A stretch of DNA of 24,122 nt from a phage. The DNA lies in the NCBI GenBank assembly GCA_012086945.1, contig GCA_012086945.1_3922.1; one strand, written 5' to 3'. Below, piece by piece: positions 1 to 5,142 of this stretch (positions are counted from its first letter, which is position 1; each line of letters opens with the position of its first letter). The translations under genes were made by a program, and so were the position numbers. The notes under the pieces are model-generated. The model did no database searches and was not told where the DNA came from. It saw only the letters and a list, made by a program, of their open reading frames with translations.

Positions 1-146
1 AGCTCTAAGTCATTTTTATCTGGTTTATGAAAACAGTTTGCTCCGCAGTGGCAACGAAATGGCTTTCCACCAACTGTAAGGATGAAGGATTGAACCTTTC
101 CATCAGGAGTTCGTACAGCATTTTTATGTTTATCTTCTTTGTTCAT
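1..146 (-). CDS. small Cys4 zinc-ribbon protein, 3' end truncated by window edge; paralogue of 471..674
   Basis: Minus-strand ATG at 146..144; translation MNKEDKHKNAVRTPDGKVQSFILTVGGKPFRCHCGANCFHKPDKNDLE... aligns with the 471..674 product (shared FRC-x-CG-x-NCFHKPD). Absent from the ORF track because it is short and truncated. Confidence 0.45.
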   Translation of the reverse strand, partial: MNKEDKHKNAVRTPDGKVQSFILTVGGKPFRCHCGANCFHKPDKNDLE

Positions 147-219
147 TTTATCTCTTGCCTCACAAGCTATGCAACCTTTTGAGTAGAAGTAGTGCCAAGC
201 ACAACCATCTAAGCTCTCT

Positions 220-474
220 TTAGTGATTAATTGAATTTACTAATTCCATGTGTTTTTCGTAGAAACATAAACATTTTTTATCTTGCTCATTTATGTAGCT
301 CTCATAAAATTCTGGTGATTCTGGTCTTTCACCAAATGAAATAACCTTTAGGTAGTACTTCCCATATGTGGAGCTATCTAACCAAGAGTCAAATAGTAAT
401 TTCTTAGTATTAGTCTTTGGAGAGATTACCAAACTTTTCTCATACAATTCCTTCATTTCTTGAGTTATCTTCAT
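220..474 (-). CDS. hypothetical protein (84 aa)
   Basis: Track ORF; stop overlaps the upstream gene start (ATGA), tight packing with neighbours; no recognisable motif. Confidence 0.45.
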   Translation of the reverse strand: MKITQEMKELYEKSLVISPKTNTKKLLFDSWLDSSTYGKYYLKVISFGERPESPEFYESYINEQDKKCLCFYEKHMELVNSINH

Positions 475-674
475 TGCATATCCTTAATCTTACCTAATAA
501 CCTTACCCCACAGTTATTACACTCGTATATGTCTAACTTTGTGTTATCAGGTTTGTGAAAACAGTTTGACCCACAACGACACCGGAATAGTTTACCATCA
601 ACACGAAGAATAAACGTCTCAAGCTCACCCTCTTCTGTAAGAACTGCGTTCTTCAATTTATCTCCTACAGTCAT
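471..674 (-). CDS. small Cys4 zinc-ribbon protein (67 aa)
   Basis: CRCGSNCFHK ... YECNNCGV gives a C-x-C ... C-x2-C arrangement; paralogous to the partial ORF at 1..146. Confidence 0.5.
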   Translation of the reverse strand: MTVGDKLKNAVLTEEGELETFILRVDGKLFRCRCGSNCFHKPDNTKLDIYECNNCGVRLLGKIKDMQ

Positions 675-877
675 TTTCTTTTACCACCAATCTCTACGTC
701 GATAACTTGAACATCACCAGCAACATCAAACTTATGAATGATACTTTCCACAGTGTAAGTCCAACCATCGATTCTAACCAACTCACCTTCCCGTGGGACG
801 ATTGGGTTACGTTGAGCTACCGTTGTAGTGGAGTGAACAACATCATAACAGTAGATATAGTTTACTAGGACTTCCAT
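671..877 (-). CDS. hypothetical protein (about 68 aa; track ORF 671..976 shortened to an internal ATG)
   Basis: ATG at 877 is preceded by GAGGT (TTGAGTGAGGTTTTCACG-ATG) and begins just after the stop of the 888..1145 gene; the longer track ORF would overlap that gene by about 90 nt. Confidence 0.4.
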   Translation of the reverse strand: MEVLVNYIYCYDVVHSTTTVAQRNPIVPREGELVRIDGWTYTVESIIHKFDVAGDVQVIDVEIGGKRK

Positions 878-887
878 CGTGAAAACC

Positions 888-1145
888 TCACTCAATAACC
901 GTAGTATGTGATTGACCATTTTTGCCATAGCTATAAGATGTTGTTGTTTGAGAGTTTGGACATCTGACAACAACAATATCTCTGCTTACAGTATCACCAT
1001 ATAACTCATAGACTATGCAATCTTGCATCTCTGGTGGGAGGCTGTAAGAAGCATTTTTATCTTCATAAGAGGGGTTGCAGCCAGATAGAAAAATTACTCC
1101 AAGTGCAACCATTGCTTTCACACAACTCTTAACCTTATTGTTCAC
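888..1145 (-). CDS. putative phage lipoprotein (85 aa), GTG start
   Basis: N-terminus MNNKVKSCVKAMVALGVIFLSG-C has a basic n-region, hydrophobic core and lipobox L-S-G-C (signal peptidase II type). Confidence 0.5.
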   Translation of the reverse strand: MNNKVKSCVKAMVALGVIFLSGCNPSYEDKNASYSLPPEMQDCIVYELYGDTVSRDIVVVRCPNSQTTTSYSYGKNGQSHTTVIE

Positions 1146-1281
1146 GATAGTCTACCTCTCTGTATGTTTTTAAATAGTGAGTGATGAGTTCTGGTAATTC
1201 ACTACGTTTAACGTTTGAACGAAGAAGCGTCCAGTCAAAACCTTTACCAACCCTTCCCCAGAGACTGTACATTTTCTTCAT
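1135..1281 (-). CDS. possible small ORF (about 48 aa, MKKMYSLWGRVGKGFDWTLLRSNVKRSELPELITHYLKTYREVDYREQ)
   Basis: Fills the gap between neighbours; its ATG overlaps the stop of the 1278..1511 gene as ATGA. Below the ORF-track length cut-off; hand translated. Confidence 0.25.
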   Translation of the reverse strand: MKKMYSLWGRVGKGFDWTLLRSNVKRSELPELITHYLKTYREVDYREQ

Positions 1282-1511
1282 AGCAACTCCAGAATATCAA
1301 TACGTTCACCTTTAAGTACTCCAGTACGGTCTTTTGCAATCTTACCGTCAACGATAAGGATGTGTGTAGACCTTAAAGCGTCGTTGTTAAAGGTTTTTAC
1401 GAACTTGCTAGGCATGACTACAATGGACATCTCCTGAATTAACTCTGGAGTGTAGCAGTTATCATGAAGTTGCTGAATAACGTCTGCAAGTGTCATTTTT
1501 GATGTCTCCAA
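1278..1511 (-). CDS. hypothetical protein (77 aa)
   Basis: Track ORF, co-oriented and tightly packed with neighbours; no recognised motif. Confidence 0.45.
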   Translation of the reverse strand: METSKMTLADVIQQLHDNCYTPELIQEMSIVVMPSKFVKTFNNDALRSTHILIVDGKIAKDRTGVLKGERIDILELL

Positions 1512-1702
1512 TATTCAATATCTACAAGTTCTTGTGCAATGCTTTTCAGATTACCTTTCAAGAAAACCTTCTCAGAACCTGAAAGAGATGAATTGTCAAT
1601 TAACCTGTTCATTCTCTCAAACAACTTCTGCTTACGATTTTTGATAGTTTCCTTTGAAGCACCTTTCATCATTGCTGCATGGGTTCTTCCACGGTGGCTC
1701 AT
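1493..1702 (-). CDS. hypothetical protein (69 aa)
   Basis: Strong Shine-Dalgarno AGGAGGG a few nt upstream of the ATG at 1702; immediately downstream of the polymerase gene. Confidence 0.5.
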   Translation of the reverse strand: MSHRGRTHAAMMKGASKETIKNRKQKLFERMNRLIDNSSLSGSEKVFLKGNLKSIAQELVDIEYWRHQK

Positions 1703-1730
1703 AAGCCCTCCTATATAAGATATTGTATAA

Positions 1731-1750
1731 GGTACTCTTCCATGAGTACC
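1731..1750 (-). other. perfect 7-bp stem / 6-nt loop hairpin (GGTACTC-TTCCAT-GAGTACC) between polymerase gene and next gene, no clear T-tract
   Basis: Inverted repeat read directly from sequence. Confidence 0.35.
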
Positions 1751-1763
1751 TTGTCAATACTAA

Positions 1764-4463
1764 TTAGTGCACTTCAAGCCAGCTTTTACCAACCTTACCA
1801 GTACCTGTTACAAGTGTTTCTTTCTTAAGACCTAAATTCTTAGAAGCTTGTCCATAATACCAGTCAGTAACTGCTTTCACTTCTGCCGTCATACTTTCTG
1901 GACATTCCCAGCTTGTTTCATCGTGATATGCGCAGAGCAAACGAGCACCAATAGCTGGTTTACGACCATTTAACTTCATCAAACCTTCGTCAATCATACG
2001 ACGACAAGCAAGGTTAATTGCCTCATTTTGAATCTGAGCCTCTGAACCCATCAAAAGATAGTTCAACAGTTTGTGTGGAGATTTACACCACAACCAAGCT
2101 CCAGCAACCTTTACAAATCCCCCTTTAGAGATTGCAGCGGTCTTACCAAAAACCTCTTCAAGTGCCTTTTTAGTCGCTTTGTAGTCAGCTTCCAAGTCAT
2201 CTAGCAACTTCTTAATTTTAGGCAAACGAATAAAGTAAGTCTGTTTAGTCAGTGCACCTTCCTGAGTAGTTGCAGCTTTAATTGTCTTAGCAAACTTCTC
2301 ATCACCTGCACCGAACAGCAGTGCATAGATACCATTCTTAGCTTTTTTACGACCCTTACTAATCTCATGGAGAAGATTCTCATCCTGAGTGGCTCGACAA
2401 GTCAAGATATCCTGCTCATCATTCAAGCTAAAGTAAATACTGTTCAGTGTGTGTGCATCAGTCCCTGAATAGACAACGTACAGGTCATTCTCAGAGTCAT
2501 AGCGGAGGTACTTATCAATCTCTGGGTTGAGGTACTCATCAAAGTGTTTGCAGTAATAGCGTCCATCTTCTTGACGAATAAACTCAATCTCTTCTTTACC
2601 TTGCGTTACCGCTTTGGTGAAGTCTTTGTCACCCATAAAGTTACAAAGAAGAACTAGCTGGGCTGAGTTCATGTCTACAGAGACAACGTTAGTACCTTCT
2701 TCACAAATCCATACTGCCCTCATTGGTTCCCCATAGACAGCAGCACCAGACGGTACGTTTACAATACCATATTGTGTCATACGTCCAGTTGAAGTACCAA
2801 ATACCATTGCACCAGCACTAAGGCGACCATCTGGACGAATCTGGTTTAGCCAACCTTTTTCATCATCCTTTGAGTTCTCAATGGTTCTGCGTCGGTGCAT
2901 CAAAGTATAGTATTTAGCAATCTTCTGTCCAAGCTCACCTTCAATCGTATCATAAGAAGATTCAGTAAGTTTTGGTGAAGTACGGATTAAGCAAGGTTCA
3001 AGCAAATCCGTGTACTTCTTCACAGACCAGTTATGTTCGATGTACTGGACACCTTCGTGTTCAACATAACTCAACCCACACCGTTCAACCATCTCCTGCC
3101 ACTTAGGATGCTTTGTAATCATCTTTTTGTTGTCTTTGAAACGACAAACTTTGACAGGGCGACCGTCTGAATCTTTCTTGTAGTTCCAGTCATCTGGAAT
3201 CCAACCAACTGATTTCAAGTAGTCTTTAACAACTGCTACCTGAGTCATACGAGAAACTTCAAACTCAATTGGTGTATATGGTGCATCAATCAATCCTGTG
3301 TAGCGACTTGACTCAAGCTCAAAGTGGTTAACAACATGACTGTTATAGTACTTCACAGTTTTAACTGTTTTTACTGGCTTCCAGTCTTTGCATTTCTTAC
3401 CAATCTTTGCATTCAACTCATTGCAAATTGCACGAGCATCCTTCATTGCTACAAAACCCTCCTTGTACTCTTCACCAGTTACAGAGTTGGTTGGTGTATA
3501 GCAATTTCTCTTTTCAATGTTAAAAATCTTTGTAGTTGGCTTACCAAATGGCTTGATTTCATATGTCTGCATCTCACCGTTACGTACCTGCTGACGATAC
3601 TTCGTCTTAGGGTACTTGGTAATTCTCTTCAGTCCATCTGCGTGACCAAATGCTTCAACATACTCATTCCAAGCTTTTGCAAACTCTTCTCCAGTGACTT
3701 TACCTTTGGTCTTAATAGTTGGAGGAAGATGTGGTTCAACTTCTGAAGCAAGCTCATTAGTCAACTTGTCAAGTTCCTTTACATGGAACTCCATAAGCTC
3801 TTTATCAGCTTTCCAACCATTGATAGCTTGTTGACTCATCCAGAAAGATGTTTCTTTAGCTCGCATATAGGTTTCATAAGTGTCTATGCCACACTTCTTT
3901 AGCTTGAGATACTCATTATCCAGTGCGCGTTTAGTTTTGGCGTTAATACGGATATCTTCCACAACACGAGTGAAGATTTCTGCATTCCACACACCCCAAT
4001 GTTCAATCTCTGGTTTACGGACACCAACACGAGCACCCCATGCAGCCAAGCCATGAGCACCTTTATAGCCTTTTGGAGTTGGTCTATCCATCCACTGAAC
4101 ACGAGACTGGATAAGAGAATCCTGAAAGAAATTACTCCACGGCTTACACTTTGGATTATCAAAGTTCCATAAATCAGGTGCAATGTGATTGAAAACCCAC
4201 CAGTCATAACCCAGACCATTATGGATGCAAAGTCGTTTTGCCTTTAACGCAAACTCAACACCTTCACGTAAACCACCCTTAATGTACTTAGTGTACTTGT
4301 GACCGAGGATAGGCTCATCTGTAAAGACCCATACAGGTGGCTCTTCATCGTCAGATTTATAATCTGCGAAAGCCATTACGTGAACTTTAGTGAACTCAAG
4401 GAGTAAACCATCAGTTTCTGTATCACCAACTAAATGTAAGTTTTTAAAATCTACGTTTTCCAT
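1764..4463 (-). CDS. DNA polymerase, family A (T7 gp5-like) with N-terminal 3'-5' exonuclease domain
   Basis: Exo I motif VGDTETDG; motif A VVSVDMNSAQLVLL; motif B RKKAKNGIYALLFGAGDEKFA; motif C AYHDE; recalled similarity to T7 gp5 (e.g. YTPIEFEV vs YTPVEHVV). Start set at ATG 4463 (MENVDF...), preceded by AGAGGGAG; the track start at 4493 lacks an SD. Confidence 0.9.
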   Translation of the reverse strand: MENVDFKNLHLVGDTETDGLLLEFTKVHVMAFADYKSDDEEPPVWVFTDEPILGHKYTKYIKGGLREGVEFALKAKRLCIHNGLGYDWWVFNHIAPDLWNFDNPKCKPWSNFFQDSLIQSRVQWMDRPTPKGYKGAHGLAAWGARVGVRKPEIEHWGVWNAEIFTRVVEDIRINAKTKRALDNEYLKLKKCGIDTYETYMRAKETSFWMSQQAINGWKADKELMEFHVKELDKLTNELASEVEPHLPPTIKTKGKVTGEEFAKAWNEYVEAFGHADGLKRITKYPKTKYRQQVRNGEMQTYEIKPFGKPTTKIFNIEKRNCYTPTNSVTGEEYKEGFVAMKDARAICNELNAKIGKKCKDWKPVKTVKTVKYYNSHVVNHFELESSRYTGLIDAPYTPIEFEVSRMTQVAVVKDYLKSVGWIPDDWNYKKDSDGRPVKVCRFKDNKKMITKHPKWQEMVERCGLSYVEHEGVQYIEHNWSVKKYTDLLEPCLIRTSPKLTESSYDTIEGELGQKIAKYYTLMHRRRTIENSKDDEKGWLNQIRPDGRLSAGAMVFGTSTGRMTQYGIVNVPSGAAVYGEPMRAVWICEEGTNVVSVDMNSAQLVLLCNFMGDKDFTKAVTQGKEEIEFIRQEDGRYYCKHFDEYLNPEIDKYLRYDSENDLYVVYSGTDAHTLNSIYFSLNDEQDILTCRATQDENLLHEISKGRKKAKNGIYALLFGAGDEKFAKTIKAATTQEGALTKQTYFIRLPKIKKLLDDLEADYKATKKALEEVFGKTAAISKGGFVKVAGAWLWCKSPHKLLNYLLMGSEAQIQNEAINLACRRMIDEGLMKLNGRKPAIGARLLCAYHDETSWECPESMTAEVKAVTDWYYGQASKNLGLKKETLVTGTGKVGKSWLEVH

Positions 4464-4493
4464 TTTTACTCCCTCTAAAATCATTAACCTCAT

Positions 4494-4719
4494 ACATTAC
4501 TGCAAAAAATTATAAAAAGCAAGTTGACAATGTACTTGACAAGGTGTTAATCTTTGCGAAGTGGGTTTTACTTAAAAGGTTACTTAACAGTTTAACTATA
4601 CAGATACTTTAAAACTCTTAAAAGATTATTTAATAGCTTTTAAAAAGCTTTAAAGTATAACGTATAGAATACGTTAAGATAAAAGATTAAAACTTAATAG
4701 TTACTTAAAAGAGGCTTAC
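4494..4719. promoter_or_regulatory. AT-rich divergent intergenic control region
   Basis: Lies between the minus-strand polymerase and the plus-strand gene array. Contains direct repeats TTGACAA (4524..4530, 4536..4542), a minus-strand TATAAT (4509..4514), and an inverted repeat TAACGTAT-aga-ATACGTTA (4658..4676). Confidence 0.45.
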
Positions 4720-5142
4720 ATGCAGAAAATGTTTGTTCACCCAGACATAGCTGACTTTGTTAGAGCTTTGCAGAAGTTGGAAGAACTTGACATTGCTGCT
4801 CAACGGGAATATGCTCACCATCACAGGAGAATGGTTGATATACAACATGAAATAGAGTTATCAGAAGACTATGAAGATGACTTAAAATGCTCTGTGTTCG
4901 AGCATATGAAAGACGTTGCTATAGCTAGACGTAAAGCTAAAGACACAGTTGCTTTACTAGATTCTCTTAAAAAGAGGTTGCAAAGTGGTACAGACCTGTG
5001 TAATCTAGCGTCACTGATTAACGATGTTGAAACTTCTTGGGATAGGCACTATTATCCACGTTCTGAAAAGACACTTGACTTTTCTTCATCCGAAAACTTA
5101 AAATGTTCTAGGAAGAAACTTAACCAACTGAGAGAGAAATAA
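4720..5142 (+). CDS. hypothetical early protein (140 aa)
   Basis: ATG preceded by AAAAGAGG; first gene after the control region; no recognised motif. Confidence 0.55.
   Translation: MQKMFVHPDIADFVRALQKLEELDIAAQREYAHHHRRMVDIQHEIELSEDYEDDLKCSVFEHMKDVAIARRKAKDTVALLDSLKKRLQSGTDLCNLASLINDVETSWDRHYYPRSEKTLDFSSSENLKCSRKKLNQLREK

Follow-up and report, generated by a model that had tools for sequence, protein, structure and literature searches.

The two small zinc-ribbon genes at the left end of this phage DNA, referred to here as zr1 and zr2, are true paralogues, as an earlier note had proposed in calling them duplicated; however, the copies are old and diverged, the state in which both are present is rare, and zr2 travels together with an unrelated gene, orf84, as a cassette. 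The slot in which they lie is hypervariable, and in related phages the two paralogues have, on the evidence of diagnostic sites, recombined into single in-frame hybrid genes.

The zr locus and the relationship between its two zinc-ribbon genes

The window, that is, the whole stretch of DNA that was analysed, is 24,122 nucleotides long. By sequence similarity its source is a Felixounavirus: a megablast search with positions 1–5000 returned 262 phage records, nearly all of them Felix O1-like myoviruses whose hosts are Escherichia, Salmonella or Shigella, with identities of 90–98%. With gene order taken from the annotated relative DE17 (genus Felixounavirus; record L001), the minus strand carries the gene for DNA polymerase (window 1764..4493), then a run of small genes, and then the gene for an ATP-dependent DNA ligase, which sits just past the left edge of the window. 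The last three genes of the small-gene run in this leftward DNA-metabolism operon are zr2, orf84 and zr1, and the pair therefore does lie near replication genes, as had been stated, between those for DNA polymerase and DNA ligase. The features of the locus are as follows.

1..146, minus strand: zr1, 5′ 146 nt (48 codons) of the gene, cut by the window edge; the full gene encodes 63 aa in DE17; translation MNKEDKHKNAVRTPDGKVQSFILTVGGKPFRCHCGANCFHKPDKNDLE
28..40, minus strand: 13-nt run CAAACTGTTTTCA in zr1, codons A/S-N-C-F-H, identical in zr2; crossover interval of the Felix O1-type hybrid
147..219, minus strand: 73-nt spacer separating zr1 from orf84; a GAGG motif resembling a Shine-Dalgarno sequence precedes the zr1 ATG
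220..474, minus strand: orf84, 84 aa, PHROG 32421 (no assigned function), forming a two-gene cassette with zr2
471..674, minus strand: zr2, the complete 67-aa zinc-ribbon paralogue, with an ATGA overlap with each of its neighbours
556..568, minus strand: 13-nt run CAAACTGTTTTCA in zr2, the same letters as 28..40 in zr1
671..877, minus strand: PHROG 4427 gene, conserved, 68 aa, upstream of zr2; left border of the variable slot

The mechanically called ORF at 671..976 begins too early, in that PHROG 4427 matches only residues 34–101 of its 101 aa and the corresponding DE17 coding sequence is 207 nt long. The zr1 reading frame (1..146, minus strand) runs through 48 residues without stops, and its 146 nt are identical to DE17 (L001:3955-4146), in which TAA-A-ATG links the end of zr1 to the start of the ligase gene, leaving 1 nt between zr1 and the ligase ATG. 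ATGA overlaps such as those of zr2 are the usual arrangement for translational coupling. A promoter and terminator scan gave no signal above chance at the locus or between the zr and orf84 genes and the polymerase gene, and because no such signal separates them, zr2, orf84, zr1 and the polymerase gene probably share one leftward transcript. Scans of the locus for Rfam families, tRNAs and tandem repeats found nothing.

Two neighbouring genes deserve brief mention. The ORF at 888..1145 (minus strand; 85 aa; PHROG 902, no assigned function) has a signal-peptide-like N-terminus with a lipobox-like L-S-G-C end (MVALGVIFLSGCNPS), which makes its product a candidate small phage lipoprotein; the homologue of this product in record L023 carries PF16225 (DUF4884) in public gene calls. 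The DNA polymerase gene at 1764..4493 (minus strand) is a single intact 909-aa ORF in the window. An HNH homing endonuclease gene adjoins the polymerase gene in several relatives (pSJ21, ASO1B and SeKF_63 were compared), and the pSJ21 record contains two polymerase coding sequences plus the HNH gene.

Both of the related zinc-ribbon ORFs that had been reported, at 1..146 and 471..674, are present on the minus strand, and the FRC-x-CG-x-NCFHKPD motif described for them is found in each, as are five cysteines. They had been placed about 300 bp apart around an unrelated gene; the gap is 324 bp, and orf84 belongs to PHROG 32421, as compared with PHROG 5768 for both zr genes. By BLASTP, the 48 residues of zr1 in the window are identical to zr2 at 28 positions (58%) in an ungapped alignment (E 9e-21). 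When the full first copy is taken from DE17 (63 aa) and aligned with zr2, the similarity spans 55–59 residues (E 8e-20), a length that rules out the concern that it might be confined to a short low-complexity stretch. A tblastn search of the window found no third copy, the next match having an E value of 0.21.

The divergence of the two genes is informative with regard to their age. Specifically, zr1 and zr2 share 64% nucleotide identity, with dN of 0.25–0.28 and saturated dS, and their longest identical run is the 13 nt of CAAACTGTTTTCA, nt 107–119 of each gene. Both also have the derived Cys38 state, which is found in 13% of the family. Saturated dS, 64% identity and this common derived cysteine fit an old duplication within the Felixounavirus lineage rather than recent tandem copying. 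Between orthologues, dN/dS is 0.24 for zr2 (window versus DE17) and 0.04 for zr1 (DE17 versus ASO1B), both calculated from small numbers of sites, and the ratios point to purifying selection acting on the orthologues of each gene. It is worth considering whether one of the two copies has lost its function and is decaying, as might be supposed from the rarity of the two-copy state and from the atypical leucine of zr2 at position 59, which is Y or F elsewhere. We regard this as very improbable: both ORFs are intact and retain all four cysteines, zr2 has the orthologue dN/dS just given and overlaps both neighbours through ATGA, and the corresponding copy in L023 (zr2b) keeps the motif at 61% identity.

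Gene turnover and hybrid genes in the slot upstream of the ligase gene

The borders of the slot were fixed as the PHROG 4427 gene and the ligase gene (the part in the window being 147..877), and the slot was compared in records L001, L002, L005, L014, L020–L032 and L061–L064. At least seven arrangements exist among close relatives, in which the flanks are 90–99% identical. Each is given below from the PHROG 4427 gene (4427) to the ligase gene.

4427, ligase, without zr: VpaE1, Sf18
4427, zr1, ligase: L026, L030
4427, orf52, zr1, ligase: wV8, ASO1B
4427, zr2, orf84, zr1, ligase: window, DE17, pSJ21, EC6, BPS17W1, others
4427, zr2b, orf84b, zr1, ligase: L023
4427, orf84-like, ligase: L27, A126
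4427, hybrid, ligase: Felix O1, many others

The slot is hence a hypervariable hotspot of small-gene turnover. When L023 is compared with the window, the upstream copy (zr2b) is 61% identical and orf84 68% identical, between flanks that are 98–99% identical. Genomes with both copies are rare: two places matching zr occur in 10 of the 226 records with a match, the whole of a 1-kb query is covered in 9 of 255 related records, and orf84 itself is found in 12 phage records, 9 of which are at least 90% identical. The combination of zr2 and orf84 is a two-gene cassette, seldom found, that has been inserted ahead of the resident copy, zr1, which adjoins the ligase gene.

Some phages have the slot but no zr gene. 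In VpaE1, Sf18 and L27, the three cases checked directly, zr is absent and the ligase gene is kept, and the PHROG 4427 gene directly abuts the ligase gene in phages without zr; a rough estimate from host-name counts is that about 75 of the 255 related records lack a zr gene. Because these relatives share the slot borders and the ligase gene, the zr gene is most likely dispensable and the ligase most likely works without it. This matters for the possibility that zr assists the phage ATP-dependent ligase as an accessory subunit or a cofactor, providing in trans a DNA-binding or clamp-like zinc module comparable to the fingers fused within LigA and Lig III. The spacing of the genes would suit such a role, in that zr1 stops 1 nt before the ligase ATG, the hybrid gene of Felix O1 overlaps the ligase start, and a zr homologue on an unrelated contig (L055) lies 370 bp upstream of an ATP-dependent ligase gene. 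However, VpaE1, Sf18 and L27 have the ligase without zr, the homologue is not beside a ligase gene in Erwinia, Klebsiella or Pseudomonas phages, and a ligase gene lies within 4 kb at only 1 of 35 loci outside the Ounavirinae. Given that zr-less relatives keep the ligase and that other lineages do not have the adjacency, we rejected a ligase cofactor as the main reading and consider it decidedly improbable.

A further argument against a ligase-related role is that the name “DNA ligase,” when attached to the small protein, is a propagated error. Many GenBank records give this name to zr proteins of 60–72 aa (for example DE17 WAX24963.1, GSP193 and Fifi44 gp41), and in Erwinia phage Fifi44 gp41 (61 aa) is so named with no ligase nearby. 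The true ligase is the next gene, whose 367-aa product contains PF01068 and PF14743; zr differs in lacking both domains, and no PF01068 nucleotidyltransferase or OB domain was found in zr1 or zr2 (63–72-aa family proteins). What zr and the ATP-dependent DNA ligase have in common is only position, with zr directly upstream or overlapping. Judged by domain content, the label is an annotation error; it probably spread from records in which the true ligase gene shares sequence with the small one, and it has reached unrelated phages.

The hybrid arrangement is best understood from Felix O1. The DNA of its single zr gene, ORF210 (72 aa), aligns with zr2 in the 5′ part and with zr1 in the 3′ part, and the stretch that intervenes between the paralogues is deleted. 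At sites diagnostic between zr2 and zr1 of DE17, 37 of 37 are zr2-type up to nt 106 and 16 of 16 are zr1-type from nt 120, placing the crossover in CAAACTGTTTTCA, the longest identical run of the paralogues. The gene is thus a clean chimera of a zr2 5′ part and a zr1 3′ part, and hybrids of this type are present in roughly 50–75 deposited genomes, as counted by identity bands. The zr1-type stop codon has been lost in Felix O1 (L005 2441..2659, ORF210) through the change of GAATAAAATG to GTTAAAAATG, with the effect that the hybrid is 9 codons longer and runs 26 nt into the start of the ligase gene.

A second hybrid is found in L064 (protein P0008; a public sequencing-run assembly). Here, 36 of 36 diagnostic sites are zr2b-type up to nt 99 and 33 of 33 are zr1-type from nt 119, and the crossover lies within a 19-nt identical run encoding F-H-K-P-D-K. 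Because its 5′ parent is the diverged zr2b, this hybrid represents an independent event. In both hybrids the frame is maintained and the four cysteines are intact. Hence, by the pattern of diagnostic sites, recombination between the paralogues has happened at least twice. We propose that paralogues lying as direct repeats would recombine in their most conserved codons (N-C-F-H-K-P-D), and that such recombination would remove orf84 and leave an in-frame hybrid gene. Parsimony favors deletion from a two-copy ancestor as the direction of change, since insertion would require a donor already carrying both copies. The hybrids are a compact and datable case, in virulent phages, of cassette loss and chimeric gene formation driven by paralogues that lie as direct repeats.

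The PHROG 5768 family and its possible role

Both proteins belong to PHROG 5768, with zr2 matching over residues 1–65 of 67 (E 7.2e-33), full-length zr1 over residues 1–63 of 63 (E 1.6e-40), and the two covering the whole 66-position profile. The PHROG 5768 entry has no functional or structural description. Scans of zr1 and zr2 against Pfam and NCBIfam gave no match above threshold, and PADLOC anti-phage defence profiles matched neither protein; one family relative (P0175) reached E 0.03 against the ECs_2282 zinc-binding family of NCBIfam, far under the cutoff. A literature search on PHROG 5768, its motif, or zinc proteins of Felix O1 and Felixounavirus found no relevant paper.

When 1.84 billion representatives were searched exhaustively with the family profile, with clusters defined at 50% identity, 458 clusters matched at E≤1e-3 and, at the stricter E≤1e-10, 106. 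The phage-borne domain of this family is about 55 residues long and has the consensus PV..DG.L..F.L.V.GK.FRC.CGCNVFHKPD...L.LY.CN.C...Y. Among 150 aligned representatives (zr2 numbering), C32 and C52 are conserved at 100% and C34 and C55 at 99%; N37, F39, P42 and N53 exceed 90%, and H40 is at 88%. Most members carry the fifth cysteine at position 36 and the Felixounavirus proteins carry it at position 38, whereas 23 of the 150 lack it. Because the four cysteines are so uniformly conserved while the fifth is missing from these members, the pattern supports a Cys4 site, and zr1 and zr2 are probably metal-binding proteins of this putative type. The fifth cysteine and H40 were also considered as obligatory ligands and rejected, in view of those 23 members and of the 88% conservation of H40. 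Also, 72 of the 150 representatives have N-terminal extensions of at least 35 residues (35–150), almost all mutually unrelated and followed by the same C-terminal domain. Single extensions match Lar, NUDIX, a MazG-like dATP/dGTP pyrophosphohydrolase, RyR and a Tad2-like domain, and some of the extensions may be gene-calling artefacts. The domain has a median net charge of 0, and 63% of members have a pI below 7.

The family occurs in about 236 of 50,697 cultured phage records, among which no informative annotation of its proteins was found. Within the Ounavirinae it is present in Felixounavirus, in Erwinia phages classified as Kolesnikvirus, and in SUSP1 and SUSP2; within the Chaseviridae it is present in Erwinia phage Fifi44 and similar Erwinia phages, alongside which an Aeromonas phage is listed without classification. 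Other carriers are Klebsiella phages of the Stephanstirmvirinae and phages of Microbacterium and Arthrobacter. In bacterial genomes the family is rare, with 5 loci when one genome was taken for each of 185,579 species. Lambdoid prophages of Pseudomonas aeruginosa carry the homologue in their early-left operon, with the repressor gene on one side and the recombination genes on the other, and in large phage contigs it lies within long runs of small unknown genes. One homologue, with a long N-terminal extension, is on an unrelated 43-kb viral contig (L055 3626..5407; IMG/VR contig 3300002700_000043), where an ATP-dependent DNA ligase gene is 370 bp downstream and a PD-(D/E)XK nuclease gene is further on.

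We clustered all ORFs within 4 kb of the homologue at 35 distinct non-Ounavirinae loci. No conserved adjacent partner was found across them, and the clustering picked out only regional early-operon genes: SSB at 7 loci, and recombinases and repressors at a few. The contig just described (L055) is the single locus with a ligase gene within 4 kb. An apparent “family” of antisense ORFs over the zr gene (18 loci, for example L003 3895..4107) was rejected as an artefact of the all-against-all BLAST comparison, arising from the strong conservation of the sense gene.

It is informative to weigh the possible functions of zr in light of these features. We favor, at about even confidence, the interpretation that zr is a small, dispensable, probably metal-stabilised accessory module that binds protein; any particular target we rate lower. 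Such a module would be made along with the replication genes and would bind a host or phage protein partner, and the two copies would then be two variants of one binding module. This fits a protein that is small, neutral, conserved and dispensable and that has no fixed neighbour. It also fits a domain that stands alone or C-terminal to unrelated segments and that virulent and temperate phages alike encode in their early or DNA-metabolism operons. Indeed, other small zinc ribbons and CSL fingers act as protein-binding modules.

The suggestion, made in the earlier note, that the pair might be regulatory or nucleic-acid-binding did not find support. Such a protein might control transcription or translation of the replication operon, or bind DNA ends or single-stranded DNA, and the conserved basic and aromatic residues that adjoin the first knuckle would be in keeping with this. 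However, the domain is approximately neutral, none of the DNA- or RNA-binding families matches it significantly, no neighbour resembling a target is conserved, and it is missing from the close relatives checked, which have the same operon; we therefore consider this role unlikely. An enzymatic role and sequence-specific binding of nucleic acid are both improbable for zr. Returning to protein binding, one can imagine a more specific version in which phages use the PHROG-5768 domain as a portable module, stabilised by metal, that docks onto one conserved host or phage DNA-metabolism protein, acting alone as an inhibitor or modulator or fused to unrelated N-terminal effectors. We think it quite unlikely that this is correct; if it were, the two diverged copies would cover two variants of the target, and the repeated formation of in-frame hybrids would mean that one half of the module can be exchanged for its counterpart.

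The gene pair is in itself ordinary, since phage early regions often encode small zinc-ribbon “hypothetical proteins,” and its family was already catalogued as PHROG 5768. What is added here is a definition of the family, its recurrent history of paralogues becoming hybrids, and an annotation error. The family is large, sharply conserved and not in Pfam, making it a clean target for domain definition and for a first functional test.

Predicted fold and comparison with known zinc ribbons

The likeness of zr1 and zr2 to Cys4 zinc ribbons, as first described from their motifs, is upheld by the invariant CxC...CxxC pattern and by a confident AlphaFold2 model, although the metal site itself is predicted. 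Specifically, the model of zr2 built from a 120-sequence alignment has a pLDDT of 90.4 and a pTM of 0.76; one built from a 10-sequence alignment (pLDDT 63.7) was too poor for use. The only fold neighbours of the model are zinc ribbons and CSL fingers, all of them with scores below significance. Likewise, when PDB sequences were searched with the family profile, no significant relative emerged, only spurious matches to C2H2 linkers.

The model resembles generic zinc ribbons and, weakly, the CSL proteins (Kti11/DPH3/Dph4, zf-CSL); Kti11 and the zr family have in common a hairpin-aromatic-x-CxCG...CxxC pattern. Alignment of the family profile with Kti11 and DPH3 by hhalign places both knuckles in register, at a probability of 3.6%, and the fold comparison gives a TM score of 0.38, which is not significant. 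The zf-CSL profile matches neither zr1 nor zr2 at E≤1, nor any of 150 members at E≤0.01. On the basis of the hhalign probability and the absence of a zf-CSL match, we do not count the zr proteins among the CSL fingers and treat the resemblance to Kti11 as a lead on topology. This outcome also weighs against a rubredoxin-like or Kti11-like redox protein, in which the CxC...CxxC pattern would bind iron and pass electrons to a partner enzyme, and we give that idea very little credence.

The zr family also departs from the CSL proteins in ways that are its own. The N-V/C-F-H-K-P-D loop and the C-N-x-C knuckle are features of the zr family that are absent from CSL, and the zr proteins occur in phages, outside the diphthamide or Elongator context of the CSL proteins. 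The generic C4 ribbons (the C-terminal ribbon of TFIIS/RpoM/TFS4, RpoP/RPC12, eL43 and Elf1) gave no significant score, and they too can be told apart from the zr family, whose first knuckle reads CxC where theirs reads CxxC and which has an extra hairpin at the N-terminus.
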